Below are positions 1 to 19,460 of a stretch of DNA of 24,908 nt, piece by piece. The stretch lies in IMG/VR virus record IMGVR_UViG_2579778993_000003, one strand, 5' to 3'. The notes under the pieces are model-generated. The model was not told where the DNA came from and made no database searches. It saw only the letters and a list, made by a program, of their open reading frames with translations. A program made the translations under genes and the position numbers. How positions within the stretch are numbered: the first letter of the stretch is position 1; every line of letters starts with the position of its first letter. Source of the DNA: a virus (Duplodnaviria > Heunggongvirae > Uroviricota > Caudoviricetes).

Positions 1-721
1 CTGGCGTCAGTTGTTACGGGAAGGAATCAGGGTGGCCAGATGTACAGTGGCGCGCCTCATGGCGGTTATGGGACTTGCCGGTGTTCTCCGGGGTAAAAAG
101 GTCCGCACTACCGTCAGCCGGAAAACCGTTGCCACAGGTGACCGCGTAAACCGTCAGTTCGTGGCAGAACGACCTGACCAGCTGTGGGTGGCTGATTTTA
201 CTTACGTCAGCACATGGCAGGGCTTCGTCTATGTGGCGTTTATCATTGATGTGTTTGCCGGATACATCGTGGGGTGGCGGGTCTCATCGTCTATGGAAAC
301 GACATTCGTGCTGGATGCGCTGGAGCAGGCGTTGTGGGCCCGTCGTCCGTCTGGCACCATCCATCACAGCGATAAAGGCTCTCAGTATGTGTCACTGGCC
401 TATACGGAGCGACTAAAAGAAGCCGGATTACTGGCATCAACAGGGAGTACAGGCGACTCGTATGACAACGCGATGGCTGAGAGCATCAATGGTCTTTACA
501 AAGCGGAGGTAATACACCGTAAGAGCTGGAAAAACCGTGCAGAAGTGGAACTGGCCACACTAACGTGGGTGGACTGGTATAACAATCGACGATTGCTGGG
601 AAGGCTGGGCCATACTCCTCCGGCAGAAGCAGAAAAAGCTTATTATGCTTCCATCGGAAACGATGATCTGGCAGCCTGAGTTCACAGATAAAACACTCTC
701 CAGGAAACCCGGGGCGGTTCA
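1..721 (+). mobile_element. IS3-family insertion sequence, right-hand part (element continues upstream of the window); right terminus at 721
   Basis: Transposase OrfB occupies 2-679. Sequence 678-721 (gagttcacagataaaacactctccaggaaacccggggcggttca) is the reverse complement of a TGAACCGCCCCGGG... terminal inverted repeat that I recall for IS629/IS3411-type IS3-family elements. The left end is outside the window, so length and target-site duplication cannot be checked. Confidence 0.7.
2..679 (+). CDS. IS3-family transposase OrfB (DDE integrase catalytic domain), 5'-partial at window edge
   Basis: The track ORF 11..679 begins at a TTG, and the frame is open back to position 2, so the true N-terminus lies upstream. 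The translation carries IS3-family OrfB hallmarks (WVADFTYV, HSDKGSQY, GDSYDNAMAESINGLYKAE). Stop TGA at 677-679, immediately followed by the terminal repeat. Confidence 0.85.
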   Translation, partial: WRQLLREGIRVARCTVARLMAVMGLAGVLRGKKVRTTVSRKTVATGDRVNRQFVAERPDQLWVADFTYVSTWQGFVYVAFIIDVFAGYIVGWRVSSSMETTFVLDALEQALWARRPSGTIHHSDKGSQYVSLAYTERLKEAGLLASTGSTGDSYDNAMAESINGLYKAEVIHRKSWKNRAEVELATLTWVDWYNNRRLLGRLGHTPPAEAEKAYYASIGNDDLAA

Positions 722-938: not shown

Positions 939-1472
939 TTATCTGTCGATTCCCCAGCACGCCAGCGCGCTCTCCTGGTCACGACGGGATACCTGACCGT
1001 AACAGTTATTTGAGCGAATACGGCAGTCTCTGCCACCGTCCTTAATCCACCAGCGAATCGCCTCACACGCTCCCCTGCGATCACCTGCATTAATTCGTTT
1101 ATAAAACGTCGACGGAAAACACTTACCGGGGCCAATGTTGTACGGACAGAATGACGCGATCCCCGCTTTCTGGGGTTCACTCAATGGCACTCTGATGTTT
1201 TTCTCCACCCATGCCAGCGCCTTATCACGCTCAATGGCGTTAACCCGGTCGCATTTTTCCTTCGACAACTTCATGCCCGGAACGACAGGTTTGCCATCCA
1301 CCAGGATGGCACCGCGGCAGATGGTCCAGATACCCGCGCCATCACGGTATGCCGTGGTGTGGTTACCTTCCTTTTCATCCAGAAACTGGTCGAGAATGTC
1401 AGGCGCAGGCGCACCAGCGGCAATCAGCGCCAGAACGGCAGCCGACAGGCCGTATCTGATTTTTGCGTTCAT
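939..1472 (-). CDS. Phage endolysin, lysozyme-like with N-terminal SAR (signal-anchor-release) segment
   Basis: 177-aa ORF. The N-terminus MNAKIRYGLSAAVLALIAAGAPAPD is a weakly hydrophobic Ala/Gly-rich stretch typical of SAR endolysins such as phage 21 R. The body resembles a T4-lysozyme-like muramidase. It lies downstream of a pinholin gene on the same strand. Confidence 0.8.
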   Translation of the reverse strand: MNAKIRYGLSAAVLALIAAGAPAPDILDQFLDEKEGNHTTAYRDGAGIWTICRGAILVDGKPVVPGMKLSKEKCDRVNAIERDKALAWVEKNIRVPLSEPQKAGIASFCPYNIGPGKCFPSTFYKRINAGDRRGACEAIRWWIKDGGRDCRIRSNNCYGQVSRRDQESALACWGIDR

Positions 1473-1577: not shown

Positions 1578-1850
1578 ATGGACAATAACACCATTTCTCT
1601 ACAGGAGTTGCTCGACAGCATTTCCAGGCTTCGGGAAGACGTGAATACCCTTACCGTCGCCTTCTCATATCTGGCATTCTCAATTCCAAGGGAACAGATG
1701 CAATCAACGCTGGCATCAATCCAGTTTGAATCATGCAATCCCAAATGGTCTCAGGAACAACAAGACTCTTTCAGGCGGCTTGCTGTATTACTGGATGAAA
1801 AATATGCTGGTAAAATTACCATTTCGGCGGACTCTTCAGAGAACCCGTAA
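1578..1850 (+). CDS. Hypothetical 90-aa protein encoded opposite to the lysis genes (possible moron)
   Basis: ATG at 1578 preceded by GAGG with a 7-nt spacer. It sits in the unusually long 343-bp gap between the 114-aa gene and the endolysin start, and its 3' end overlaps the convergent 114-aa gene by about 35 bp. No recognisable motif. Confidence 0.35.
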   Translation: MDNNTISLQELLDSISRLREDVNTLTVAFSYLAFSIPREQMQSTLASIQFESCNPKWSQEQQDSFRRLAVLLDEKYAGKITISADSSENP

Positions 1851-2160
1851 TTATTCCCGGTAGTTTTCCTCTGTAGGTTATCAACACATCCTGCGCCTCT
1901 AAAATTACGGGGCGCTTTTCCGGCGACTGCTCATCCCCTTCACATAACCCGGCAGCAACATCCAGGAAGACCTGTCTGATGCTCCTTCTGGCTGCTGCCT
2001 CATAAAACTCCAGCGCGGCACCTTCAACACGGTCCAGCGAGATGTCCAGGTCAAAAATTTCACCGTCAAAGCGTTTTTTGTCCCGTAACGCTAAAGTTAC
2101 CGTAACTTTATTCTCAAAATTGCGGATCCCTTTCACAATCAGTTCATAGTTTTGAGTCAT
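1816..2160 (-). CDS. Hypothetical 114-aa protein between holin and endolysin
   Basis: ATG at 2158-2160 is preceded by GGGAGAG, 4 bp after the holin stop, so it appears translationally linked within the lysis cassette. No motif recognised. Confidence 0.5.
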   Translation of the reverse strand: MTQNYELIVKGIRNFENKVTVTLALRDKKRFDGEIFDLDISLDRVEGAALEFYEAAARRSIRQVFLDVAAGLCEGDEQSPEKRPVILEAQDVLITYRGKLPGIITGSLKSPPKW

Positions 2161-2164
2161 TGAA

Positions 2165-2380
2165 TTACTCTCCCCGTGCAGCCTTACGACGGTCCTCTCT
2201 GATTTTGAAATACAGGTTAGTCAGATATGTCAGCAGCCCAAACAGCAGACTCCCCAGCACGCCTATTGCCGCCCACTGAGACGGGGAAACCCTGTCCAGC
2301 AACTGCAGGAACCAGTAGCCCGTTCCCACCGCTGACGTGGTGTATGACACACCTGTTGTGATTTTTTCCATCTGGTACAT
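2165..2380 (-). CDS. Class II holin / pinholin (phage 21 S-like), 71 aa
   Basis: The track ORF is 97 aa, but the convincing start is the ATG at 2378-2380, preceded by GGGAGACGGGGT. The product [71 protein letters not shown] closely resembles the phage 21 S pinholin as I recall it (two TMDs, charged C-tail). A second in-frame ATG three codons later could give a dual-start holin/antiholin pair. Confidence 0.8.
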
Positions 2381-2530
2381 ACCCCGTCTCCCGTTATCCG
2401 GAAGCTGACAACAATAAAAAAAGCCACCAGTTAAGTACTGATGGCTCTGATAACTCATGCAGGCATCTCAGACGACCCACTGACACTACCGGTGAGTTTA
2501 ACGATACCTTCCATTTGACTGGCTCACTTT

Positions 2531-4387
2531 TTATGATGATGCTGGTGCATTTATCTCCAGCACCAGACTTTCTATCTCAACGCCATACGCTGCATTTTTG
2601 GTAATATCCGTCAGCGTCAGCGCATTCAGCCCCAGTGTCAGACTGTCTTTTATGACCTGGAATGCCGGGCCAGCCACTCCATTCAGTTTCGGAGTAACCG
2701 TGGCACTGCCGGCGGTGAACACCAGCTCCAGCGTCTGCCAGTCGTTACTGTAATTCCCGAACTCGCCCAACTTTGTGTTTCCTGCTTTCCTGTGATGCAT
2801 CAGATTCAGTTTGCCGTCTGTGGTCTGGGTGAAGAACGACATCAGGAACGGGTTACCAGTCCCGGTCATCGCCACGACGTCAGGTAACGCTACATCGGTA
2901 TACAGATAAATTCCCAGACCGAACTGGTTGTTGGTCAGTGCGCCTGACAGTCGAAACTTACAGCTCAGTCTGCCACCCCGTGTCAGCAGGGAGACTGCGT
3001 CATCCACCGGATGCATCAGGGACCAGGTTTTATTGCTCTGCTTGGTAACCTTAAACACACCATCTTCCAGCGCAACACTGCCGCCGGTGATGGTCCAGCC
3101 CTGCGCAGCAGCCTCTCCGGCTGTCGGCAGCAGGGAGACTGTACGAACGGATGTGTCACCATCAGACGGCCCCGATGGCGTGTCGCCGCCGGGCGAGGGT
3201 TTAATCTCCGGTGCGGTACCGCTGATGAAGGCGCTGGTTCGACCAACTGCGTTCAGAATAGCGGTTGCCAGGCGATCCGAAATAATGCCCCTGCGCGCCC
3301 ATGAACTGAAATGTGTCGGACGATTTGACGATACCCAATTACCATTACTACGGGATTGCGCGCCGTAATAACCTGCATCAGCAATATCCGGGTCTTCTGC
3401 CGGTAAGTTGGTGGGCGTGTTGTTGCCGTTACCGTCGGTCATGAACGGCACAAAGAAAACGTTGTCGCTCTCCCTGTTTTTGTACGCGCCGTAGACGGAG
3501 TCATACTGTGTGCCGTATGTGTTTTTCCAGTAATACGTCGTGTCGCCACAAATCCACGGTACAACTGCAGCACTGCCGCCATGGCACTGCGCCGCCAGCC
3601 CGGCAAGGTCAGCACGGAACTGCTGTACCATTGCAAGAAATGCTGCTGGCTGCTGGGCGTAACTGGCATTCGTCATATCGAATTCCCCCTGCATCCAGCA
3701 TATCGCCAGCAAAACGTTTTTCGGGTTTTTCTGCAATGCTGCCTTCGTGCGGAAAAGCAGATCCTGATATAATGGTTTACCCACACCCCAGCGTGCCGAA
3801 TCCTGGCTGGCCCCCGTGTCCGCACTGAATGTCCCCTCCGCGCCCTGGGTGAATGCCGAACCACCACGACAGCATGGTACCAGCAGGATCCCCGCATTAT
3901 TAGGGATATACGGAAGCAGTTTTTTGGCAATATGTAAGCCCTGTCCGACACAGCCGTACTGCCCTTTGCTCAGGTCAGCCCGGGGATGGTTAATCGTACT
4001 CATATCCTGAACATCATGCAGACAATGGTCAGCAGGAATGATGTCGTTAAATACGCATACTTCACCACCGGGAGTCACTGTGTTACGACGGGCCAGTTGC
4101 TTAATGCGCGGATGGGGCGCATCGTATGAATCCGGAAGCGGAAGCCCTTCACCGTAAGCCATGGCATTGGACTGCCCGGCCAGTACGATGACGTAGTACC
4201 ACTCCGGCTCAGTTGCACCACTGACGACCACATCACCTTCTGCTGCAATCGCCTGCATCAGGGTATAAGGGGTTATGGCCACCGGACTACCAAACGGCTG
4301 CCAGCCCTCTTTCAGTTTATGTGTCAGCTTTTCCGCAAGATCTGACGGCGACGCCGCCCTGACAACATCATAGTGTTTAAATGCCAT
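2531..4387 (-). CDS. Prophage sialate O-acetylesterase-like protein (NanS-p-like; SGNH/SASA hydrolase with extra N- and C-terminal domains), 618 aa
   Basis: Contains the esterase motif LAGQSNAMAYGEG (GQSN catalytic serine block) after an N-terminal ~60-aa domain (MAFKHYDVVRAASPSDLAEKL...), plus a long C-terminal beta-rich region. It sits between the tRNA/stx slot and the holin, the position of NanS-p genes in Stx-type prophages. Confidence 0.7.
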   Translation of the reverse strand: MAFKHYDVVRAASPSDLAEKLTHKLKEGWQPFGSPVAITPYTLMQAIAAEGDVVVSGATEPEWYYVIVLAGQSNAMAYGEGLPLPDSYDAPHPRIKQLARRNTVTPGGEVCVFNDIIPADHCLHDVQDMSTINHPRADLSKGQYGCVGQGLHIAKKLLPYIPNNAGILLVPCCRGGSAFTQGAEGTFSADTGASQDSARWGVGKPLYQDLLFRTKAALQKNPKNVLLAICWMQGEFDMTNASYAQQPAAFLAMVQQFRADLAGLAAQCHGGSAAVVPWICGDTTYYWKNTYGTQYDSVYGAYKNRESDNVFFVPFMTDGNGNNTPTNLPAEDPDIADAGYYGAQSRSNGNWVSSNRPTHFSSWARRGIISDRLATAILNAVGRTSAFISGTAPEIKPSPGGDTPSGPSDGDTSVRTVSLLPTAGEAAAQGWTITGGSVALEDGVFKVTKQSNKTWSLMHPVDDAVSLLTRGGRLSCKFRLSGALTNNQFGLGIYLYTDVALPDVVAMTGTGNPFLMSFFTQTTDGKLNLMHHRKAGNTKLGEFGNYSNDWQTLELVFTAGSATVTPKLNGVAGPAFQVIKDSLTLGLNALTLTDITKNAAYGVEIESLVLEINAPASS

Positions 4388-4609: not shown

Positions 4610-4616
4610 GCCCACA

Positions 4617-4850
4617 AGAAAACCCCTCCGGAGAGGGGCTAAAGCCGCGTATCTGTATCATCATGCACATGGTGCCGGGTGCCTCCCGGTGAGTTCAGCC
4701 CGGTGCCACTAAACCCGCGTCATTCTCGTTTTGATAATCAGAGATTATACCGTCACCAGTCGCCCCTCCGCTCAGGGGGATTCACCATGCGAAATTTTTT
4801 TAACAAATGCCCAGTCTGACAGGCAACTGTCAACTTACTGAATTGTGAGC
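4617..4850. repeat. Direct repeat unit A (~230 bp), degenerate copy of unit B, rich in palindromic hairpins
   Basis: Shares ordered conserved blocks with 5105-5318: aaaa(c/g)ccctccggagaggggct, gcatggtgccgggtgcctcccggtga, cccctccgc.cagggggattcaccatgc, ttttaacaaa and cagtcaac...ctgaattgtgag. The first block is a perfect 6-bp hairpin (CCCCTC cgga GAGGGG, 4623-4638) preceded by an A-run, so it is a minus-strand terminator. Confidence 0.6.
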
Positions 4851-4875: not shown

Positions 4876-4903
4876 TTTTCTGCAGTAAAAAGGCCCACCG
4901 GAG
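4876..4903 (-). terminator. Minus-strand intrinsic terminator between the two repeat units
   Basis: Hairpin GGCCCA (4882-4887) / TGGGCC (4898-4903) around a 10-nt loop, with a plus-strand A-run at 4877-4881 giving a T-tract on the minus-strand transcript. Confidence 0.5.
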
Positions 4904-5104
4904 CGGATGGGCCTGGAAGGATAGCGGTCATGTGATGCCGGTTTCCCGGTAACTCAGCACCGGTATCTGAGTCAACGTTTTCTCTACTGGGTCATTTCCG
5001 ATACGCCCTGCCTGCTGACAGGCTTTCATCACATCTGAAAATATAGCACCCTGACTGATACTGTAGTACCTAAGGTTCCAGAAACTGTGATGTATCCGGC
5101 ACAG

Positions 5105-5318
5105 AAAAGCCCCTCCGGAGAGGGGCTGGAGAGTGGCGCTATGTGCCATTGCATGGTGCCGGGTGCCTCCCGGTGAATTCAGTACCAGCACCTGAATCCG
5201 CGATTATCCCATATACCTACTCGCTGATTGCCCCTCCGCACAGGGGGATTCACCATGCCAGTTTCTTTTAACAAACTCCCCGCAAACCAGACAACAGTCA
5301 ACCGCCTGAATTGTGAGA
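5105..5318. repeat. Direct repeat unit B (~215 bp), degenerate copy of unit A
   Basis: Same conserved blocks as unit A, including the CCCCTC cgga GAGGGG hairpin (5110-5125) and the 8-bp inverted pair gcatggtg / caccatgc bracketing a variable ~110-nt core. Confidence 0.6.
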
Positions 5319-5362: not shown

Positions 5363-5439
5363 TGGCGCGTTGTACTGGATTCGAACCAGTGACCGATTGC
5401 TTAGAAGGCAATTGCTCTGTCCGGCTGAGCTAACAACGC
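5363..5439 (-). tRNA. tRNA-Arg (anticodon UCU)
   Basis: Manual cloverleaf on the minus strand: acceptor GCGTTGT/ACAACGC, D-stem GCTC/GAGC, anticodon stem ATTGC/GCAAT with loop CTTCTAA, T-arm ACTGG-TTCGAAT-CCAGT, discriminator G and encoded CCA. All stems perfect; 77 nt. Confidence 0.9.
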
Positions 5440-5452
5440 AGGATACAGATAA

Positions 5453-5529
5453 TGGACCGCCTTCGGGGACCCGAACTCCGCGCAACCAGCTTCGAAGGCT
5501 GGCGCTCTTTCCTGATGAGCTAATGGCGG
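5453..5529 (-). tRNA. Putative tRNA-Arg (anticodon UCG), slightly degenerate
   Basis: Cloverleaf fits with D-stem GCTC/GAGC, anticodon stem CCAGC/GCTGG with loop CTTCGAA, and encoded CCA. There is one mismatch in the acceptor stem (A-A), one in the T-stem (A-C), and an atypical T-loop TTCGGGT, so it may be a diverged or pseudo tRNA. Confidence 0.55.
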
Positions 5530-5536
5530 TATGTGA

Positions 5537-5612
5537 TGGTGGCCCTTGCTGGATTTGAACCAGCGACCTGGCGATTATGAGTCGCTCGCTCTCACCACTG
5601 AGCTAAAGGGCC
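5537..5612 (-). tRNA. tRNA with CAU anticodon (Met by anticodon; resembles the Ile2/lysidine-type ileX/ileZ class)
   Basis: Minus-strand sequence GGCCCTTTAGCTCAGTGGTGAGAGCGAGCGACTCATAATCGCCAGGTCGCTGGTTCAAATCCAGCAAGGGCCACCA folds as a 76-nt cloverleaf with one A-C mismatch in the anticodon stem. It closely resembles E. coli ileX as I recall it. Confidence 0.85.
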
Positions 5613-5661: not shown

Positions 5662-6711
5662 TCAAACGATTAAATCCTGAACTTCCCTGACTGTCTGCTC
5701 AAAACGTCCGGTCTCCAGCTCAACACCAATCGCACGACGCCCCAGTGCCATCGCCGCTTTTACCGTTGAACCCGACCCCATGAAAAAATCCGCAACCAGA
5801 TCACCAGGACGGCTACTTGCGCTGATTATCTGCTGCAGCATTTCTGCCGGTTTTTCGCACGGATGTTTCCCGGGATAGAACTGCACCGGTTTATGCGTCC
5901 ACACATCGGTATACGGCACCTGCACCGTCACGCCAAAATACCGCCGCAGATGTTTATATTCACTCAGCAGCTCCGCATACTGCCGGTTCAGTGAGGTATA
6001 CGTATCCACCAGCTGGTGGTGGAGCTTTTCCAGTTCACCACGCCGATGCTTCTCTTCTGCCACCCGGGCAAACAGCGCCTGTAATTTCAGATAATCGCTT
6101 TCATTCGGTAGCTGCCACTGACTGGCACTGAACCAGTGCGACACCATGTTTTTCTTTCCTGTGGCATCTGCAATCTGTTTTGCCGTTATCCCCAAGGCCG
6201 CGCGCGCATCACGAAAGTAAGAAATCAGCGGGGCCATCACATGCTGTTTCAGTGCACTGCCCTTCGCCGCATACCCGGCATCTTTCGGACGATACGGCCC
6301 CTGATAATGTTCCGCGAACAGAATGCGCTCTGTGGCGGGGAAATACGCCCGCAGGCTTTCCTTGTTGCACCCGTTCCAGCGTCCGGACGGCTTCGCCCAG
6401 ATAATATGGTTCAGCACACTGAAGCGTTCACGCATCATGATTTCGATATCAGATGCCAGGCGATGACCACAGAACAGGTAAAGACTTCCGGCAGGTTTCA
6501 GCACCCGCCAGAACTGCGCCAGACACTGGTCCAGCCATTTCAGGTAATCATCGTCGCCCTTCCACTGGTTATCCCAGCCCTCAGGCTTCACTTTAAAGTA
6601 CGGCGGGTCCGTGACTATCAGGTCAACAGAATTTTCGGGTAACGACCGGATAAATTCCAGGCAGTCGGCGTTGATTAACTCACAACTGGATATTTTTACA
6701 GTATTAAGCAT
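5662..6711 (-). CDS. Orphan DNA methyltransferase (amino-MTase, N6-adenine or N4-cytosine; motif order DPPY then FxGxG)
   Basis: 349 aa with catalytic motif IVTDPPYF near the N-terminus and the AdoMet-binding motif FFMGSGST near the C-terminus. No restriction endonuclease gene is adjacent. ATG at 6709-6711. Confidence 0.85.
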   Translation of the reverse strand: MLNTVKISSCELINADCLEFIRSLPENSVDLIVTDPPYFKVKPEGWDNQWKGDDDYLKWLDQCLAQFWRVLKPAGSLYLFCGHRLASDIEIMMRERFSVLNHIIWAKPSGRWNGCNKESLRAYFPATERILFAEHYQGPYRPKDAGYAAKGSALKQHVMAPLISYFRDARAALGITAKQIADATGKKNMVSHWFSASQWQLPNESDYLKLQALFARVAEEKHRRGELEKLHHQLVDTYTSLNRQYAELLSEYKHLRRYFGVTVQVPYTDVWTHKPVQFYPGKHPCEKPAEMLQQIISASSRPGDLVADFFMGSGSTVKAAMALGRRAIGVELETGRFEQTVREVQDLIV

Positions 6712-7285: not shown

Positions 7286-8107
7286 CTATCGCGTTACCCT
7301 CTTTAACTGCCGCTCCGCCCATGCCTCTTCAATGTCAAACCGAACCACCAACGTATCGTAAAAGCGTTTCACTGATTTTTTCCACGTATCAAGCGTGATA
7401 GCACTCGTCACTTTGCGTATGGCATTAAATGCCTCCGTTGATGGTAGTCTTTCACAGCCACGACCACCACAACGCTGGCAGTCTCTGATAACAGGCATAC
7501 CACGTTTTACCGACTCTTCACGATGAATGGCAACACCACGCCCACGGCAGTCTTTACAGGCAGTGGAAATCTCCCCCTTCCCTTTACATTCAGGACAAGA
7601 AACTTTCACCACCTCCCGAATTTTTTTCCATTCTTCCCAGTAAGACGGATACACACCTTTCGTACACTTTGCCCATACTGGCGGCTTGCCATCCGGATAC
7701 TGAACCTTGTTTGTAAAAACTTCGCCTTCAATAAATTTTTCCCCTCGGCAACAGGGGCACTGCTTTTTACTCGCTGCGCTGCGGGCATAATCCTCAAAAG
7801 CGTACGAAGCCATAATGCGCATCACTACCGGTTTTATTTCTGCCGGAAGTTTTCTCAACGCCGCCACACGATCGCACCGACTGAGTGCATAATCTGCCAG
7901 TAATTCTGTTGCCCGCGCCCTGTCATTCATACTGATGCCCATTTTCCCCAGGAACGCAGAAAACCCCATCTCAGCCCGATTCTGTGTCATGCCCTGCGCG
8001 GCCATCACATCAGTGATACTCAGCGCATCTTTCGACGTTGAGGCCGATGCATCAGTCAGGCCGGGGGATTTTGGGGAGTAGTATTTCGGTAAATCTTCCA
8101 GTTTCAT
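7286..8107 (-). CDS. Putative late-gene antiterminator Q (Cys-rich, zinc-finger type), 273 aa
   Basis: Directly downstream of rusA with a 4-bp ATGA overlap, and followed by a promoter plus terminator pair. Contains repeated CxxC motifs (CPCCRGEK, CPECKGKGE, CKDCRGRG, CQRCGGRGCE). Family assignment rests on synteny and motifs. Confidence 0.6.
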   Translation of the reverse strand: MKLEDLPKYYSPKSPGLTDASASTSKDALSITDVMAAQGMTQNRAEMGFSAFLGKMGISMNDRARATELLADYALSRCDRVAALRKLPAEIKPVVMRIMASYAFEDYARSAASKKQCPCCRGEKFIEGEVFTNKVQYPDGKPPVWAKCTKGVYPSYWEEWKKIREVVKVSCPECKGKGEISTACKDCRGRGVAIHREESVKRGMPVIRDCQRCGGRGCERLPSTEAFNAIRKVTSAITLDTWKKSVKRFYDTLVVRFDIEEAWAERQLKRVTR

Positions 8108-8484: not shown

Positions 8485-9543
8485 TTATGCTTTCCACTTC
8501 AGAACACCCGAATTTCTCGCGTGCATTAAAAAACGAATCAGCAACAACAGCTGGCTGCCGTGTTTTTCTTCAAAATCTTTTACCCCGGCGTGTAGTTCGC
8601 TATGGCATTTACGGCACAGCGGAATAACAAACAAATCATCAGCCTTTGTTCCCATCCCTCCCAGTCCATGACCAATGATGTGATGCGGATCATCTGCCTG
8701 ATTGCCACACGTCATGCATTTCTGCGTTTTTACCCAGCGCGTGTATACAGGCATCTCTTCCCGTTGTGATTTCTGGCGCTGGAGATACTGAGCCGGTGAC
8801 TCGGGATCAACGGCAATGCTGACCACCGTCTTTTCCTGTGGTGGGTTCTGTTGCTGGTGGGCGTGAGGCAGCGGCGCAAGATTTTTTGTGCGCTGTTTCA
8901 GTATGCTGGTGGCGGTCTGCTCTCCCGGTATGATGTCGCTTTCACTGTACACAGAGCGAATTTTTTCCGCACGCAACCCCAGCGAACGACGTAATACCGC
9001 TTCCGGTAGCGCGTCCGCCACCTGATTGCGGACCGCCCACCAGGATAATTCAGCCAGAGATAATTCACGCTCCTGCGTACCGCTTATTGCGTGACCGATG
9101 ACGTCAATCATCCATGCTGACAGGTTTTGATGAGCAAGTTGCCCGAGTGATTCGGATGTCTGGTCACGCAGCTGGTTGTCGCAGTGCCAGCACAACACCA
9201 TTGCGCCGGTACCATAACGGTGAATGACGGTTTCGCTGTGATGATAATCGCCGTGTGGCCACTGGCAGGATTTAATATGGCGCAACAGCCAGTCAGACAA
9301 TGCACCAGCACCACCAGCAGCACGAATCACCCGTGCGTTACTGAAAAACGGCAGCAATGTTTTGTCTTCCACCAGCGGCTGGCGAGCGGCAGGAACGACC
9401 CCGGACGGCAGATTACGCATGCTTTTTGGTTCCGGCTCCACCAGTATTCTGCCGTTATGGAATGCTGACATTGATTCACGGCCTGGCTTAACGATAACCA
9501 GACCGAGTTCCGGTACCAGAACAGATCGAAGTAATACCCGCAC
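8485..9543 (-). CDS. DUF968-type prophage protein with C-terminal HNH-like zinc-finger nuclease motif (YdfU-like)
   Basis: The C-terminus CMTCGNQADDPHHIIGHGLGGMGTKADDLFVIPLCRKCHSELH has the Cys/His spacing of HNH endonucleases. The start is ambiguous: GTG at 9541-9543 has a strong SD (GGAGG), and an alternative ATG lies at 9469-9471. Confidence 0.65.
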   Translation of the reverse strand: MRVLLRSVLVPELGLVIVKPGRESMSAFHNGRILVEPEPKSMRNLPSGVVPAARQPLVEDKTLLPFFSNARVIRAAGGAGALSDWLLRHIKSCQWPHGDYHHSETVIHRYGTGAMVLCWHCDNQLRDQTSESLGQLAHQNLSAWMIDVIGHAISGTQERELSLAELSWWAVRNQVADALPEAVLRRSLGLRAEKIRSVYSESDIIPGEQTATSILKQRTKNLAPLPHAHQQQNPPQEKTVVSIAVDPESPAQYLQRQKSQREEMPVYTRWVKTQKCMTCGNQADDPHHIIGHGLGGMGTKADDLFVIPLCRKCHSELHAGVKDFEEKHGSQLLLLIRFLMHARNSGVLKWKA

Positions 9544-9544
9544 A

Positions 9545-9823
9545 TTACCTCCAGATCCGTTGCTGGAATGTGCGGGACGGACGCGCTGGCCGTTCTGAGT
9601 AAGGGAGCCTGACGGAGATTATCCAGTGACGGTAGTCGAGGCTAAGGGCTTTTTTAACCTCGCATCCGCGCCCGCGGTAACACTGAATGAGCCATTCAGC
9701 CTGTTCTTCGGTGCAGGGGTCGTGCTGATACCAGTCAGATTTGAATGCATGAGAACGCCGCCCGTGCCTGCTGGCAGGGGCGGCAGAGTTATCCGAATTG
9801 TAAAATTTGGTATCGTGCGCCAT
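9545..9823 (-). CDS. Hypothetical nin-region protein (92 aa)
   Basis: ATG at 9821-9823; the stop abuts the start of the DUF968 gene. Four Cys residues; no motif recognised. Confidence 0.4.
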   Translation of the reverse strand: MAHDTKFYNSDNSAAPASRHGRRSHAFKSDWYQHDPCTEEQAEWLIQCYRGRGCEVKKALSLDYRHWIISVRLPYSERPARPSRTFQQRIWR

Positions 9824-10090
9824 CTGTTTTCTCTGCTGGCGCAGCAGGTGCCAGTTGTTCAGGCTGACGTATGAAGTATAAATAAACTGGCTCCAGTGTA
9901 AAGCCCCACCTTAATGGAATAAAAACCAAACAACAGATTGCTGGGATAAAAATACAACGCTTATTATTAAAAGCGGTTAGATAAATTAAATTTTAATGTT
10001 ATGCAAATCTGCCAGATTAGCATAATATTTCATTTGAAAACCGCTGAAATAACAATCTTATCGGGATTAATCATATTAAGGTGAGTAAAT

Positions 10091-10177
10091 ATGGAAAACA
10101 ACAAATCTGCACATTACGCTCCTTTTTTATCTGTAATACTTTTTGTATTTTGTTGTGTATGGGCGGTATTTTTATAA
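10091..10177 (+). CDS. Candidate small hydrophobic peptide (28 aa: MENNKSAHYAPFLSVILFVFCCVWAVFL), below the ORF-track length cut-off
   Basis: ATG at 10091 preceded by AAGGTGA (10078-10084) with a 6-nt spacer. A short polar head is followed by a single hydrophobic helix-length segment, and the stop TAA (10175-10177) lies 18 nt before a strong bidirectional terminator. It is convergent with the protease gene. Confidence 0.3.
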   Translation: MENNKSAHYAPFLSVILFVFCCVWAVFL

Positions 10178-10194
10178 AACACACCCACAAATAA

Positions 10195-10224
10195 ATCAAA
10201 CCCGCTACAGCGGGTTTGATTTAT
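10195..10224. terminator. Bidirectional intrinsic terminator shared by the small plus-strand ORF and the protease/ATPase operon
   Basis: Perfect 10-bp stem TCAAACCCGC (10196-10205), loop tacag, GCGGGTTTGA (10211-10220), with T/A-rich runs on both sides. Confidence 0.65.
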
Positions 10225-10231
10225 ATAGTTG

Positions 10232-12496
10232 TTATACGGAAACTGGCACACGAGCAGGCAATGGATAGTGAGCCCAGTTATTAGCATTTAAAGCTCTTAC
10301 GCCATCAGCATAAACTTGTGTTTTTCCATCTAATGATTTTAAAGTTACTACAATAGTTACAGGTAAAGGCTCCATTAAGGCCGGTTCATTCGCTCTCAAC
10401 GTTGTTTTAGCTTGAAGAGCCCAGTTACCCGAAGTAATTCCTTTATTAAATGCCTTGCGATGAATTTTTACTGGTGACCACTTTCCACCATGCTCAATTT
10501 GAGCTCTCTCATATCCAGATTGACCGTTTTCTCCTTCCATAGGTACTTTTCCTTTTATAGTATTATTCTCAATTAAGCCAAAACTTAGCTCTACGTTCGC
10601 GCGAACATATTCACTGCCGGCATTAGGGTTCAGTGGTGGTGCATATGCAGCAGTAATTACAATCTCACCTTTAAATTTTCCATTTTGAATAAGTGCCGAT
10701 GGTATGGGATAGTTTTCCTTTCTCCACCTCACCCCAGGAACCAAGAATGTTTGGAAAATCAGAGTAAACCTATCATCACTATCATATAAGGTCTCAATAA
10801 CCTCATTAGGAATTCCCGCTCCCAAATAGCGTCTTTCACTTGGCGAGTAATCAGGAGAAGATAATTGAGCGGAATGAATTAATAATGCTTTAATCAATGA
10901 TGGTGAAACATTAAAGTCTGAATTAGTGGCTATTCTCTGCCATGTATGCGCAGCTAAACTTGCCACAATTGGAGCAGCAAAACTAGTACCAAAATTAGAG
11001 CAAAGCCTATTATCTGGCCCTACGACCTTTAAACTGCTTGCTCCTACATTCCAAGGTCTATGAACCCCACCGCCAGCATGGATTATATCTGGCTTTGGAG
11101 TAAATACAGGCCCAGGGCCACGACGAGTATATGGTGTCGGTGTTCCAATTTCACTTAAAGCATCATTAGCTTCCATATGAGAAACTGAACCAACTGTTAG
11201 TGCTCGGACTGACTCTCCAGGAGAGGAAATTAAATCAGCACCTCCAAGCGGATCAGGATTTGGCCATGTACGTATAGGTTCATCTACATAATTACCTGCA
11301 GCAACTACAAACAAAATACCAAATTTATCGCTGAGCCGATCTAACTCCATCGCAAAATCACTAAACATCTGCTCATTACATGGTCCGCCTCCCAAAGATA
11401 AATTCCAGACTTTTATATCTGGTCTTTTATTTACAGCATCTGCTAGCCTCAGAATTAAATCTGATATATAAGATCCATTTTCATCTAAAGCACAAACATC
11501 ATGGATTTTAGATTTTGTATCAGGAATCCATGGATGATTGTCATTTAAAAAATGAGCGCCTGATATCAATGAAGACACCATAGTCCCATGTTCATAACTC
11601 GTATCAGGAGGAATTACGTATGTTTCCCTACTCACTACCCAAGGAGTAATTGTTGCCGCGATGGGGCTTACCCCAGTGTCAAATACAGCAACAATGGGTA
11701 ATTCTTCTGATGGTACGGGAAAGCTATTTGTTTCAATGCCAACAGAATCACTTACACTAACCGGGAATGCTGAATATTTTGGTTCTGGAATTAACGTTCT
11801 TATACCCGGGTAATCAATGAGAATGTCTAATATATATCTATCATTTGGGGATAAATCCATTATCCTTAATAAGGGAAGACCACATTTTGGTCTAATCTCA
11901 TCATATTTAACTCCGTGTTGTTCTAATATAGAAATAACGTTTTCATAGTTGTTGTAAGTTGCATCTTCACCTGTGTACTCAAATAGTCGTACAAGGATGT
12001 TTGATGATTCAAACAAACCATCAGTGCCTCCTGGAACCTTCCTATTCTCATCCCAAGGTTCAATGCGCTCAATCGCGCTTAGATTAGCCAAAATCGCTTT
12101 AATATTCCGATGTAAAATGACTGACTCTAATACGTCAAAACAGCCGGCATGAGCAGCAACCAACATTTCATCTATTTTGGCATGACCGGCATTTTGCAAT
12201 CCAGCCTCTTGAGCAATTTTGTTCGGCCTATGCGTTTTGGCTATTCCCTGGTCTCTTAATTTGAAAACCAAAGTACCCAAGCTTCCAGGGTACTCTGAAA
12301 GTTTGGATTCTAAATAATGTTTACTGGTTGTTAAATTTCTTACTAGCCCTTGTCTATATTCGGCTGTTACATCAACCAATACCTTTGCCCCACCGCCAGC
12401 GTTTACTATTGCACCCAAGTCACTACTGGAAAAAGGGATTCTTAACATTGGGTTTGTAACTTTTGCGTTACTAAACTGTGTACCCCTTCTGCTCAT
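10232..12496 (-). CDS. Subtilisin-like serine protease (peptidase S8) with extra N- and C-terminal domains, 754 aa; protease component of an IetAS-like two-gene system
   Basis: Catalytic residues in subtilisin order: Asp in VAVFDTGVS, His in YEHGTMVSS, oxyanion Asn in VVAAGNY, Ser in GTSFAAPIVAS. ATG at 12494-12496 with a GGAG/AGGAG SD inside the 3' end of the upstream ATPase gene (26-bp overlap). A+T-rich relative to neighbouring prophage genes. Confidence 0.9.
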   Translation of the reverse strand: MSRRGTQFSNAKVTNPMLRIPFSSSDLGAIVNAGGGAKVLVDVTAEYRQGLVRNLTTSKHYLESKLSEYPGSLGTLVFKLRDQGIAKTHRPNKIAQEAGLQNAGHAKIDEMLVAAHAGCFDVLESVILHRNIKAILANLSAIERIEPWDENRKVPGGTDGLFESSNILVRLFEYTGEDATYNNYENVISILEQHGVKYDEIRPKCGLPLLRIMDLSPNDRYILDILIDYPGIRTLIPEPKYSAFPVSVSDSVGIETNSFPVPSEELPIVAVFDTGVSPIAATITPWVVSRETYVIPPDTSYEHGTMVSSLISGAHFLNDNHPWIPDTKSKIHDVCALDENGSYISDLILRLADAVNKRPDIKVWNLSLGGGPCNEQMFSDFAMELDRLSDKFGILFVVAAGNYVDEPIRTWPNPDPLGGADLISSPGESVRALTVGSVSHMEANDALSEIGTPTPYTRRGPGPVFTPKPDIIHAGGGVHRPWNVGASSLKVVGPDNRLCSNFGTSFAAPIVASLAAHTWQRIATNSDFNVSPSLIKALLIHSAQLSSPDYSPSERRYLGAGIPNEVIETLYDSDDRFTLIFQTFLVPGVRWRKENYPIPSALIQNGKFKGEIVITAAYAPPLNPNAGSEYVRANVELSFGLIENNTIKGKVPMEGENGQSGYERAQIEHGGKWSPVKIHRKAFNKGITSGNWALQAKTTLRANEPALMEPLPVTIVVTLKSLDGKTQVYADGVRALNANNWAHYPLPARVPVSV

Positions 12497-13625
12497 ATGC
12501 TCCTGACTCCTTCAGAATGTTTGAAATTACTCTTGATGTAAGTTTGTACAAATTAGCAAGAACTCTGATAGAAAATAATTTTTTATCTTTAGAACGTAAC
12601 CAACGAATTTCATCTTCGTAAGTGCTTAAATTTACACCTTCCATAAGCGATTGCGCAAGATACAAACGCCTATACAATTTATGGTGATTTATCACACTTG
12701 CACCTTCAATAACTGCATCCCTACGTGCATCCAAGCTCACCTGTTCAATTATTGCTCCGGATAATCCCTCCGATTTTCTTGATAAATCACTTAAATCTAG
12801 ATCGCTACATATCATATTCTTTAAACGATTTTTCCAAATTAACTCTCTCTGATGTATGTCAGGCAGAGGCATTGGAATTCTGAAGCTAAATCGCCTCCAG
12901 ATTGCAGGATCCAGAAGTTGCTCATGGTTAGTTGAGGCAATAATTACCGTATCCTCTGATGCCGCATCCATATTCTGCAATAGTGAAATGACAACTCGCT
13001 GAAGCTCACCTATATCTCTCTCATTACCTCTTGCTCCAGCTAAAGCATCAAATTCGTCTAAAAAAAGCACTGATGGCCTCTGCATTACATAATCGAAAAC
13101 CTGTCTAAGATTTTTGCTGGTTTGTCCCAATAAACTACTAATCAAAGTATCGCAACGCACTGTAAGAAGTGGAAAATCTAAGCGGGTAGCGATGTACTTA
13201 GATAACATAGTCTTACCTGTTCCTGGCTTTCCATACACGAGCATACGACTCGGCAATGCTGCATCAGCTTTAACAAACTCATCATAACGTTGAACATTAG
13301 TGATAAACTCTTCAACACGGGTACTGATTGCTGCAGGCAGAAAAATCTCTGAACTGTCTAATTTAGGATAACTGACATCAACAGTGTTGAGTCGACTATC
13401 AATATCTACCGGTAATGAGCCCAGAGATATCCCACCTCCAGCCCTTTGAGCTCCTGCCAACGCCTGGGGAGCTCTAAGCAACCTTTCTCTTATCATTCTG
13501 GCTTGCTTGACCTCCCCTTTTTGTTCGAGCTTATCTGCCAGCAACCCAGCATAATTACTAGCCATCGAAGCATTTGCCTTTGTTGCACCTTCAATGATTT
13601 TTAACACTTCTGATAAATAATCCAT
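12471..13625 (-). CDS. Classic AAA-family ATPase, 384 aa; ATPase component of an IetAS-like two-gene system
   Basis: Walker A GKPGTGKT, Walker B VLFLDEFD, and a second-region-of-homology-like segment ASTNHEQLLDPAIWRRFSF with sensor Asn and Arg fingers. ATG at 13623-13625 preceded by GGGAG with a 6-nt spacer, after an AT-rich ~190-bp leader. Confidence 0.9.
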   Translation of the reverse strand: MDYLSEVLKIIEGATKANASMASNYAGLLADKLEQKGEVKQARMIRERLLRAPQALAGAQRAGGGISLGSLPVDIDSRLNTVDVSYPKLDSSEIFLPAAISTRVEEFITNVQRYDEFVKADAALPSRMLVYGKPGTGKTMLSKYIATRLDFPLLTVRCDTLISSLLGQTSKNLRQVFDYVMQRPSVLFLDEFDALAGARGNERDIGELQRVVISLLQNMDAASEDTVIIASTNHEQLLDPAIWRRFSFRIPMPLPDIHQRELIWKNRLKNMICSDLDLSDLSRKSEGLSGAIIEQVSLDARRDAVIEGASVINHHKLYRRLYLAQSLMEGVNLSTYEDEIRWLRSKDKKLFSIRVLANLYKLTSRVISNILKESGAYEQKGYTV

Positions 13626-13818
13626 TCAACACTCCCACAACAAAAAGCCACAGCAATCAAAAAATGAGCACACAGAATCAAAATACTCTCTAATCGTAAC
13701 GCATTTTGAGATTTTTGATACGTTTTTTTGGGATTATGTAACGCCAAATGGTCATTTTGTGTCAGAAAAATAAATCTTAGTACCGAGAATATGTAGCTTC
13801 CATCCTTCATCGTTCTAT

Positions 13819-14250
13819 TCATCCCTGATCTCCAAGCCTCTCTCGAAAACCATTCTGATAAAACGCCAGCACACGCTGCATAACTTCGCTCTTCCGGCAC
13901 TCGCGACAGATTATGTTCAGACGCCTGTCGTAGCGGCGTATTTCTCCGTCTGGTAATGACCAGATAAGGTCCGGATCAACCACAGATGGTTTCTTCACCT
14001 TTGCCCTGGATAGTTTTTTGCGGGCATTTTGCCAGTCCTTACGAGCCTGTTCAGACGGGAATAACCCGTAACCAGAGTTGTATACATCGCCACTGGCAAC
14101 CAGCTCTCTGGCGAGAACGCTCATCAGATATCTTGTCGCACCTGTCTTGGCTTCCAGTTGCCGTAACGTCTCGCGCCCACTCCGGCGTACTAGCTCAACA
14201 ACCTGCCCTTTAATTTTTTCCCGCTCTTCTTGTGTAAATACTTTTGCCAT
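13819..14250 (-). CDS. Hypothetical prophage protein (143 aa from the ATG at 14248-14250)
   Basis: Strong SD GGAGG 5 nt upstream of the ATG at 14250; the track ORF starts 5 codons earlier. Basic protein with a CxxC pair near the C-terminus; no family recognised. Confidence 0.55.
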   Translation of the reverse strand: MAKVFTQEEREKIKGQVVELVRRSGRETLRQLEAKTGATRYLMSVLARELVASGDVYNSGYGLFPSEQARKDWQNARKKLSRAKVKKPSVVDPDLIWSLPDGEIRRYDRRLNIICRECRKSEVMQRVLAFYQNGFRERLGDQG

Positions 14251-19099: not shown

Positions 19100-19460
19100 T
19101 CTCCACGGGTCAGGTGGAGTGCGTGCGCCGGACACGGGTGAACATCCGGCACTGACAGTTTACTGAAAGGATATGTCCCTGAAAAGTCAGGGCATAACGC
19201 GAAAGCGCACGGCGAAATTGGTCTCTCTGTACGGTGTCGTTAAATTTAGTTCGACCGTGCGCTTCCGGTTGTGGCAATCCGCGAAATGGTGCGGCGGTAA
19301 GTATGGCGGGGGTATTCCTTCCCCCGTTGAGGACACCGGGTTGTCAGGTTGACCATACGCTTAAGTGACAACCCCGCTGCAACGCCCTCTGTTATCAATT
19401 TTCTGGTGACGTTTGGCGGTATCAGTTTTACTCCGTGACTGCTCTGCCGCCCTTTTTAAA
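19100..19460. other. GC-rich, hairpin-dense non-coding region (candidate structured RNA or DNA site)
   Basis: No convincing ORF. Several perfect stems: GCCGGA/TCCGGC nested inside GTCAG/CTGAC (19111-19156), CCCTGA aaag TCAGGG (~19177-19194), GCGCACGG...CCGTGCGC enclosing ~45 nt (~19205-19262), CGGGGG tattcctt CCCCCG (~19307-19326), and GGGTTGTCA-19 nt-TGACAACCC (~19338-19374). Confidence 0.3.

Follow-up and report, generated by a model that had tools for sequence, protein, structure and literature searches.

The question raised by this locus is whether a prophage-encoded sialate O-acetylesterase is only metabolic cargo for the lysogen, or whether part of the enzyme may also travel on the phage particle. 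The gene lies in a 24,908-nucleotide stretch of DNA from a tailed phage (the window), and the features on which we rely are collected in Table 1. The original prediction had described the product as a NanS-p-like SASA/SGNH esterase with a GQSN motif and with additional N- and C-terminal domains, and our searches bore this out. The GQSN motif was located at residues 71-74, and the profile search for SASA and DUF1737 that had been proposed as a check was positive for both. Pfam matched DUF1737 at residues 3-50 (E=4.7e-16), SASA at residues 66-262 (E=1.5e-12) and DUF6645 at residues 468-578 (E=3.4e-19), all above the gathering score. PHROG_143 matched over the full length (E=0), and a search of NCBIfam gave no meaningful match. 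E. coli NanS (structure 3PT5) aligned to residues 59-379 (E=1.1e-122) and the C-terminal domain of 'NanS-p' (6YP6) to residues 422-614 (E=9.3e-31). The linker that follows the DUF1737 module is short (residues 53-58). No signal peptide or transmembrane segment was found in the 618 residues, and the start codon is preceded by GGGAGG.

Table 1. Features of the window used in the analysis, in order of position.
Feature	Position	Strand	Details and evidence
IS3-family insertion sequence end	1..717	plus	rve transposase 11-679; Pfam
Phage lysozyme (endolysin R)	939..1472	minus	Pfam PF00959, E=1e-23
DUF1327 / YdfR family protein	1816..2160	minus	
Class II (P21-type) holin	2165..2380	minus	Pfam PF04971, E=9e-33
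Terminator-like hairpin in the 150-nt esterase-holin spacer	2420..2448	minus	Possible PasA/PasC-type sRNA position
NanS-p family esterase, coding sequence	2531..4387	minus	618 aa, 66 kDa, ATG start, stop codon 2531-2533; intact ORF
C-terminal lectin-like jelly-roll domain (DUF6645), aa 421-618	2534..3127	minus	6YP6 match and Pfam
Pro/Gly/Ser linker, aa 381-420	3128..3247	minus	Between catalytic core and C-terminal domain
NanS-like SASA/SGNH catalytic core, aa 59-380	3248..4213	minus	3PT5 match and motif positions
DUF1737 module, aa 1-52, loop class S (ITPY41TLMQ)	4232..4387	minus	Pfam and alignment with phi24B gp84
STnc100/PasD-type sRNA gene, copy 2	4610..4819	minus	Rfam RF02076, 161 bits; hairpin terminator 4640-4621; directly upstream of esterase
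STnc100/PasD-type sRNA gene, copy 1	5097..5287	minus	Rfam, 136 bits; terminator 5127-5108
tRNA trio	5363..5612	minus	CAT anticodon (Ile in RefSeq annotation), Arg-TCG, Arg-TCT
N6/N4 DNA methyltransferase	5662..6711	minus	Pfam PF01555, E=4e-43
First terminator just downstream of Q	7203-7188	minus	Terminator scan
pR'-like promoter (inferred), TTGATT-16-TAAATT	7280-7253	minus	Read from the sequence; under scan threshold
Late antiterminator Q, PF03589 type, 273 aa	7286..8107	minus	Pfam, E=9e-51; RefSeq 'antitermination protein'

The hallmarks of the SASA/CE6 family (PF03629) are GQSN with the Ser nucleophile and the Gln of the oxyanion hole, a Gly in block II, (H/M)QGE in block III and a His in block V (PMC9487903). 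Blocks I, II, III and V were all present in the window esterase: GQSNA at residues 71-75 with Ser73 as nucleophile and Gln72 as oxyanion residue, RGGSAF at 174-179, MQGEFD at 232-237 and THFS at 358-361 with His359. With the published block table of 3PT5 as reference (PMC10792757), the first three are identical in chromosomal NanS (YjhS), and block V reads SHFS in NanS versus THFS in the window. In both cores Ser and His form a pair, and the block V Asp is missing. NanS differs in being a single-domain protein, with neither DUF1737 nor the lectin-like C-terminal domain, and in being encoded outside a phage late operon; it is part of the chromosomal nanCMS sialic-acid regulon. It is reportedly most active on 9-O-acetyl Neu5Ac (PMC9487903), and every nanS-p allele of EDL933 and O104:H4 that has been tested gave an active esterase (review PMC8065619). 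The catalytic residues and activity data used here come from the secondary sources PMC8065619, PMC9487903 and PMC10792757. From these sequence comparisons we conclude that the gene, which belongs to a lambdoid prophage, very probably encodes a sialate 9-O-acetylesterase of the NanS-p family with three domains.

The gene itself counts as already known, as the RefSeq entry WP_032278306.1 ('SASA family carbohydrate esterase') is 100% identical to it, four complete E. coli chromosomes carry a 100% identical esterase, and among 5426 complete E. coli genomes 2234 have homologues, frequently more than one each, with about 7,600 copies in total. Since the gene is annotated, its architecture is not unusual, and its family has been covered in biochemical, structural and genomic work, the locus adds little in this respect. 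The best-studied enzyme, L0105/z1466 of phage 933W, was 52.7% identical to it over 99% of the query, thus at full length, and 71% in the core. The NanS-p proteins of 933W and phi24B (vb_24B_21, or gp84) share the three domains, the catalytic blocks and the genomic slot with the window; block V is RPTH in the window as against RASH/RSSH in the 933W/phi24B type, and the phi24B C-terminal domain is 36% identical to that of the window. Full-length amino-acid identity was higher, at 82-86%, for the proteins of Stx1a-converting phages (85.6%), JLK-2012, PPyecE_EH1910 and the Stx2 phage 86. The RPTH form of block V is common to all of these, and for phage 86 it had been noted previously (PMC10462455). 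The Stx1a and PPyecE alleles also resemble the window in combining a class-S DUF1737 (96% identity) with an HK97-like head. The first ~105 residues of the phage 86 protein are of the phi24B type, and the rest is window-like, with a C-terminal domain 93% identical to that of the window.

The surroundings of the gene were as the original prediction had them: it lies ahead of the lysis genes in a late region that carries no toxin. The order, canonical for a lambdoid late region, is Q, methylase, the tRNA trio, an stx slot that is empty apart from STnc100 genes, esterase, holin, DUF1327 and lysozyme, the last three on the same strand directly downstream of the esterase, and it is the same around the esterase in 933W and phi24B. 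In Stx phages, stx is preceded by the same tRNA trio. Neither Stx A nor Stx B had a homologue anywhere in the window (tblastn, best E=0.64). The 975-bp interval between the tRNAs and the esterase, which corresponds to the stx position of Stx phages, contains only STnc100-type sRNA genes, including a weak, degenerate third copy at 4885-5058 (30 bits, below the gathering score). The window esterase differs from those of 933W and phi24B in having no upstream stx operon, and in being associated with a siphovirus HK97-like head module as opposed to that of a Traversvirus; in the Stx1a-converting phages, JLK-2012, PPyecE_EH1910 and phage 86 the upstream slot is occupied by stx or another insert. 933W and phage 86 likewise have an STnc100 element, placed between stxB and nanS-p. 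Near the elements of the window no AsxR/AgvB-type antisense sRNA, as present in 933W and PPyecE, was found at E<=0.1. We also considered STnc100 as a pR' leader RNA and rejected this, since in 933W and phage 86 the element is far from the annotated pR', and the lambda-like pR' candidate of the window adjoins Q.

A crude scan detected no sigma-70 consensus promoter on the coding strand between 2100 and 7400, a stretch in which the upstream sRNA genes presumably have promoters. Terminator-like hairpins were more numerous than expected (16 observed versus 5.4+-2.2), and eight of them fall on the coding strand in the interval from Q to the holin. Because of the lack of a consensus promoter and these eight hairpins, the esterase reads more as a Q-dependent late gene than as an autonomous moron. 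The hairpin in the spacer between esterase and holin is at a possible PasA/PasC-type position, for which context is available (bioRxiv 10.64898/2026.05.13.724894). Based on this context and on published work on orthologues, the esterase would be transcribed in the late operon only when Q-modified RNA polymerase passes the terminators between Q and the lysis genes, and would be expressed after prophage induction, in a fraction of the cells; for other alleles, expression was measured to be induction-dependent (PMC10462455). The enzyme would build up in the cytoplasm and be released at holin/endolysin lysis. Outside the cell it may strip the 9-O-acetyl group from Neu5,9Ac2 on mucin glycans, and the de-O-acetylated sialic acid would become cleavable by sialidase and usable by surviving sibling lysogens.

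What else the protein may do is suggested by its N-terminal domain. In phi24B, cryo-EM and proteomics reported in a preprint showed that the DUF1737 domain of NanS-p (gp84) docks on the capsid hexons, and that gp84 is an abundant virion protein located on the capsid faces and not on the tail (bioRxiv 10.64898/2026.04.10.717836). This evidence concerns a class-T domain on the T=9 capsid of a podovirus; Tyr42, the 'tooth', is the capsid anchor, and the linker motifs 'SISSP'/'SSP' are proposed autoprocessing cleavage sites (bioRxiv 10.64898/2026.04.10.717836). Residues 1-35 of the window DUF1737 were nearly identical to gp84. The anchor loop of the window is 3 residues shorter than that of phi24B, and contains a tyrosine (Y41) at a place where the alignment is ambiguous. 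The first linker is 11 residues shorter, and neither SSP nor SISSP occurs anywhere in the window protein.

Additionally, we compared the DUF1737 loop class (S, T or D) with the type of head module in 71 informative viral contigs, which are a non-independent sample. Head types were A (HK97-like), L (lambda-like), B (phi24B/Traversvirus) and C (ClpP-MCP-fusion). Class S was found with A in 14 contigs, with L in 40 and with C in 2, class T with B in 7 and with A in 1, and class D with C in 7; none of these contigs combined class S with head type B. In this set the adjusted mutual information with head type was 0.58 for DUF1737, and no clustering threshold gave more than 0.18 for the core or more than 0.25 for the C-terminal domain. 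The N-terminal class thus followed the head module better than did the domains that lie physically between DUF1737 and the head genes. Phage 86 is a mosaic: its NanS-p joins an N-terminus of the phi24B type to a core and C-terminal domain like those of the window, and its head is of the phi24B type. Recombinant exceptions to the pairing were found in three contigs (L158, L082 and L134). We rejected the idea that each DUF1737 variant belongs strictly to one head type, since class S, and even one identical 52-residue N-terminus, occurs with two unrelated head modules, the HK97-like A and the lambda-like L, in addition to the three exceptions. Within the class of the window, dN/dS was lowest in DUF1737 (0.089, dS 0.27), intermediate in the SASA core (0.19) and highest in the C-terminal lectin-like domain (0.47), the most variable part of the protein.

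In addition to the esterase identity we propose, with a probability of roughly 0.45, that the DUF1737 of this allele would dock the esterase onto the centre of the capsid hexon, with part of the enzyme riding on the virion. The gene would then be a head-associated late gene and not a free-standing cargo gene. For this allele docking is only plausible, and unproven, because of the shorter anchor loop, the lack of the cleavage motifs and the occurrence of the class with two head types. As for homology to structural proteins, which the original prediction had set against an esterase, the SASA identity stands, but the DUF1737 of the phi24B orthologue is itself a capsid-decorating module. Whether this particular prophage produces virions is doubtful, since the portal gene is frameshifted in isogenic prophages and in the window the insertion sequence splits the prophage, separating the lysozyme from the Rz/packaging genes. 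Identity with the IS-free genome TUM14664 begins exactly at position 718; the 100% identical prophage of that genome encodes an HK97-like protease-MCP fusion head and a lambda-like long tail.

The reading that comes closest in our estimate, and which could well be correct although we put it short of even odds, is that the gene is lysogenic-conversion cargo and nothing else. The enzyme would have no role in the virion, the bacteria would benefit from O-acetylated sialic acid as carbon source, and the class-S DUF1737 would serve in folding, oligomerisation or regulation, for example. The growth advantage and mucin de-O-acetylation described for EDL933 and O104:H4 alleles (PMC8065619) argue for it, as do the intact gene in prophages with a frameshifted portal, its wide and often multicopy occurrence in E. 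coli, the presence of one class-S N-terminus with two head types and the poor conservation of the gp84 anchor loop and cleavage motifs in the window allele. It agrees less well with a gene that has no consensus promoter of its own in view and is embedded in a Q-dependent late unit, with an N-terminal class that follows the head module, with DUF1737 being the most constrained part, and with the abundance of the phi24B orthologue in virions. The cargo label of the original prediction is the conventional published view and may hold, but as 'pure cargo' it is probably incomplete, because the N-terminal domain looks like a capsid-docking handle and the gene reads as a late gene.

An enzyme on the virion could also be directed at a bacterial surface glycan, such as an O-acetylated O-antigen or an O-acetylated capsule, for example of O-acetylated polysialic acid, and aid access to the receptor instead of feeding the lysogen. 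This was put forward as a hypothesis in PMC8065619, and the virion location of the phi24B orthologue is consistent with it, as is a C-terminal domain that varies in the way of a specificity module (dN/dS as above, and 36% identity between classes). We find it improbable, since the core is close to NanS (E=1e-122), which reportedly prefers 9-O-acetyl Neu5Ac (PMC9487903), and the phi24B protein is on the capsid faces and not on the tail. That the SASA fold is dead or re-purposed as a lectin or structural decoration, or acts on another substrate such as acetylxylan, which some SASA/CE6 members use (PMC9487903), is more improbable still. One of four aromatics of the proposed C-terminal sugar site is missing in the window protein (F611 -> L585), which would fit such a change; against it, all four catalytic blocks are shared with NanS, including the Ser nucleophile and the His, core dN/dS is 0.19, and every tested EDL933 and O104:H4 allele was active (PMC8065619).

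Coming back to docking, a wider proposal, which we offer tentatively and as somewhat less likely than docking of the window allele, is that NanS-p is generally displayed on virions, with DUF1737 as an exchangeable adaptor for docking, each variant suited to particular head modules. Class T would pair with Traversvirus heads, class D with ClpP-MCP-fusion heads of type C, and class S with heads of the lambda-like and the HK97-like kind, and the class-S esterase of the window would be carried into mucus on siphovirus capsids. The Hoc protein of phage T4 is an analogous capsid decoration protein that displays accessory domains.

To describe NanS-p as metabolic cargo that serves the lysogen, as is commonly done, may tell only half the story. 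If docking extends to the DUF1737 of the common class-S prophages, phages with a mucin-editing enzyme on their particles would be present in almost half of E. coli genomes, and this would bear on the behaviour of phages in gut mucus and on the annotation of nanS-p genes. If DUF1737 is a general adaptor, the single case of phi24B would be extended to most lambdoid phages of E. coli, which would then have a mucin-modifying enzyme on their surface.

The esterase is real and its family had been correctly named: it is an already known, already annotated and ordinary allele, and it sits where members of this well-described family usually do. ORF listing returned exactly the 618-aa frame of the original prediction, on the minus strand with an ATG start, and a GGGAGG Shine-Dalgarno sequence was found directly 5' of it. 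The expected GQSN motif lies at aa 71-74 within LAGQSNAMAYG, and the HMM check gave matches above the Pfam gathering scores for both SASA and DUF1737. The protein also matched PHROG_143 over its full length (E=0), and an NCBIfam search gave no model for the esterase. Two PDB chains matched, namely 3PT5 (E. coli NanS/YjhS; aa 59-379, E=1.1e-122) and 6YP6, named 'NanS-p' (aa 422-614, E=9.3e-31). The crystal structure of NanS-p covers the C-terminal domain of phi24B vb_24B_21, a lectin-like jelly roll (PMC10462455, PMC8065619). Published 3PT5 blocks are GQSNA (Ser19), RGGSAF, MQGEFD and SHFS (His301) (PMC10792757), and the blocks of the window protein show the SASA hallmarks: a Gln beside the nucleophile, QGE in block III and, as in NanS, no block V Asp (PMC9487903). 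Its block V context is RPTH, a variant that PMC10462455 gives for Stx2 phage 86 only. No signal-peptide-like or transmembrane hydrophobic stretch was found in the protein; over its first 50 aa, Kyte-Doolittle hydropathy in 12-residue windows peaks at 1.22.

Features of the window and of the esterase (nt, window positions; aa, esterase residues)
Feature	Position	Strand	Detail
Q antiterminator	7286-8107	minus	PF03589 type
N6/N4 DNA methylase	5662-6711	minus	
Three tRNAs	5363-5612	minus	first, 5537-5612
STnc100/PasD-type sRNA gene	5097-5287	minus	strong copy
STnc100/PasD-type sRNA gene	4885-5058	minus	weak degenerate copy
STnc100/PasD-type sRNA gene	4610-4819	minus	strong copy
Esterase	2531-4387	minus	618 aa
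Esterase-holin spacer	2381-2530	minus	150 nt; 12-bp hairpin and T-run at 2448-2420
P21-type holin	2165-2380	minus	
DUF1327/YdfR gene	between holin and lysozyme	minus	
90-aa ORF	1578-1850	plus	RefSeq hypothetical WP_000369850.1
Phage lysozyme	939-1472	minus	
End of IS3-family element	1-717	plus	rve transposase ORF 11-679
IteS/IteA	10232-13625	minus	S8 peptidase, 754 aa; AAA ATPase, 384 aa
DicF antisense sRNA gene	19401-19452	plus	Rfam 76.7 bits
Exonuclease VIII-like gene	20096-22567		
DUF1737	aa 3-50		Pfam E=4.7e-16, above gathering score
SASA	aa 66-262		Pfam E=1.5e-12, above gathering score
DUF6645	aa 468-578		Pfam E=3.4e-19, above gathering score
GQSNA	aa 71-75		Ser73
RGGSAF	aa 174-179		
MQGEFD	aa 232-237		
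THFS	aa 358-361		His359

Four complete E. coli chromosomes carry the gene with 100% nucleotide identity, and RefSeq names the product 'SASA family carbohydrate esterase' (WP_032278306.1). Of 5426 complete E. coli genomes, 2234 have homologues (median 2 copies, maximum 14), and 353 sequenced-phage records encode a relative. The nearest phage relatives were those of Stx1a-converting phages, of JLK-2012 and of PPyecE_EH1910 (~86% amino-acid identity). Phage 86 NanS-p is also close (81.6%), whereas the classical NanS-p of 933W, L0105, is only 52.7% identical; by domain, identity to 933W/phi24B is 71% for the core and 64% for DUF1737, and the C-terminal domain shares 36%. At the proposed sugar-binding aromatics of vb_24B_21, Y510, Y515, Y540 and F611 (PMC10462455), the window protein has F489, Y494, F519 and L585, aromatic in three of four. 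The C-terminal domain, which holds these positions, evolves faster than the rest of the esterase, as would fit a specificity module.

Read along the minus strand, a DUF968 protein and RusA come first, ahead of Q, and the esterase is followed by holin, DUF1327/YdfR and lysozyme, placing it upstream of the lysis genes as predicted. The region is also toxin-less as claimed, since a search across the window gave no Stx homologue. In 933W and phage 86 an STnc100 element sits between stxB and the esterase gene, so the neighbourhood is the known one minus the toxin. Tandem STnc100 copies occupy the slot that holds stx in Stx phages. In 933W and phage 86 there is one copy, with antisense AsxR after it, whereas the window has two strong copies and a degenerate one, and neither AsxR nor AgvB was found near STnc100. 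Both strong copies end in a near-identical terminator hairpin (AGCCCCTCTCCGGAGGGG). ARAGORN called the first tRNA Met (CAT anticodon), and RefSeq gives tRNA-Ile for an identical gene, which fits ileZ-argN-argO of 933W. The trio provides tRNAs for rare codons ahead of the late genes. PasA/PasC sRNA genes were placed at the position of the esterase-holin spacer by a 2026 preprint (bioRxiv 10.64898/2026.05.13.724894); an Rfam search of this spacer gave no match. The holin ORF listing reaches 97 aa through the spacer, and Pfam and RefSeq favour a 71-aa holin from 2380. The 90-aa ORF, which runs in the other direction and lies between the lysozyme and YdfR genes, had no Pfam match.

Terminator-like hairpins numbered 16 against 5.4+-2.2 expected; 8 of these fall in the Q-holin interval of the coding strand, where the scan found no sigma-70 consensus promoter. 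Directly after Q, TTGATT-16-TAAATT followed by a terminator is a putative lambda-pR'-like promoter, below the scan threshold. On these grounds the esterase would be a Q-dependent late gene, set free at lysis. Such a reading would agree with the induction-dependent expression published for other nanS-p alleles (PMC10462455, PMC8065619).

Positions 718-24908 were 100% identical to E. coli TUM14664. In that strain the prophage goes on to genes of the Rz region, then a head of HK97-like type, with a protease-MCP fusion of 645 aa, and a long tail resembling that of lambda. Its portal gene is frameshifted, and JKHS016 has the same arrangement; in genomes with the identical esterase the frameshifted portal is annotated at L005 23379-25639 and L001 8587-11171. 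Compared with TUM14664, the IS3-family element meets the prophage at 717/718, with lysozyme on one side and, by the gene order of TUM14664, Rz/packaging genes on the other. Since the IS separates lysozyme from downstream genes and identical prophages carry the portal frameshift, the window prophage is probably defective for particle production. Its Q-esterase-holin-lysozyme unit is intact, and the identical-esterase lineage may be defective in virion assembly with the Q-esterase-lysis unit kept. The window also holds a two-gene anti-phage defence system, IteS/IteA, each matching NCBIfam equivalog models above cut-off. It lies in a low-GC stretch (~9500-14000; about 0.38-0.42 vs about 0.50 in the flanks), indicating a defence island in the early/nin region. 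The DicF gene maps to the early-left part of the prophage, close to the exonuclease VIII-like gene.

The original prediction regarded the esterase as lysogenic-conversion cargo. This is the textbook reading, as NanS-p is published to let lysogens use Neu5,9Ac2 and to de-O-acetylate mucin glycans (review PMC8065619), and it needs softening given the virion location of the phi24B orthologue gp84 and a covariation of DUF1737 with head type. A preprint found gp84 among the most abundant proteins of phi24B virions, where it is full length when freshly prepared and becomes processed during storage; its DUF1737 (residues 2-57) forms hexamers that plug into central hexons of a T=9 capsid by means of a Tyr42 'tooth' (bioRxiv 10.64898/2026.04.10.717836). 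Residues 1-35 of the window protein are almost the same, whereas its Tyr-bearing loop (ITP-Y41-TLMQ) is 3 residues shorter than that of gp84 (STAG-Y42-GAEFIQ). The linker after it has 11 residues fewer and lacks the SSP motifs that are the proposed gp84 cleavage sites. In phage 86, a Traversvirus like phi24B, NanS-p (L006 1701-3596) is a mosaic: its first ~105 residues match the phi24B/933W type exactly, and the remainder is close to the window protein (core 86%, C-terminal domain 93% identical), implying a recombination breakpoint within the catalytic domain.

We typed 160 IMG/VR loci for DUF1737 loop class (S, as in the window; T, phi24B type; D) and for the downstream packaging/head module (A, HK97-like protease-MCP fusion; L, lambda-like; B, Traversvirus; C, 700-aa TerL with ClpP-MCP fusion). 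The 71 informative loci gave S-A 14, S-L 40, S-C 2, T-B 7, T-A 1 and D-C 7. Chance-adjusted mutual information with head type was 0.58 for the N-terminal class (71 loci, non-independent contigs), and whatever the clustering threshold, core and C-terminal domain reached at most 0.18 and 0.25; merging A and L gave 0.75, 0.24 and 0.28. Simple linkage is not the explanation, because core and C-terminal domain physically separate the N-terminal module from the head genes. Among 88 unique class S coding sequences, dN/dS was 0.089 in DUF1737, 0.185 in the core and 0.47 in the C-terminal domain; with a dS of 0.27, the DUF1737 module is strongly constrained. Class S, even one identical 52-aa sequence, occurred with two head types, and three loci were recombinant exceptions to the pairing. 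Docking of the class S DUF1737 of the window to capsids has a slightly less than even chance (about 0.45). The protein is better labelled a late-operon esterase that is plausibly also virion-associated via DUF1737, and the DUF1737-head covariation at the family level is the sole part that merits follow-up.
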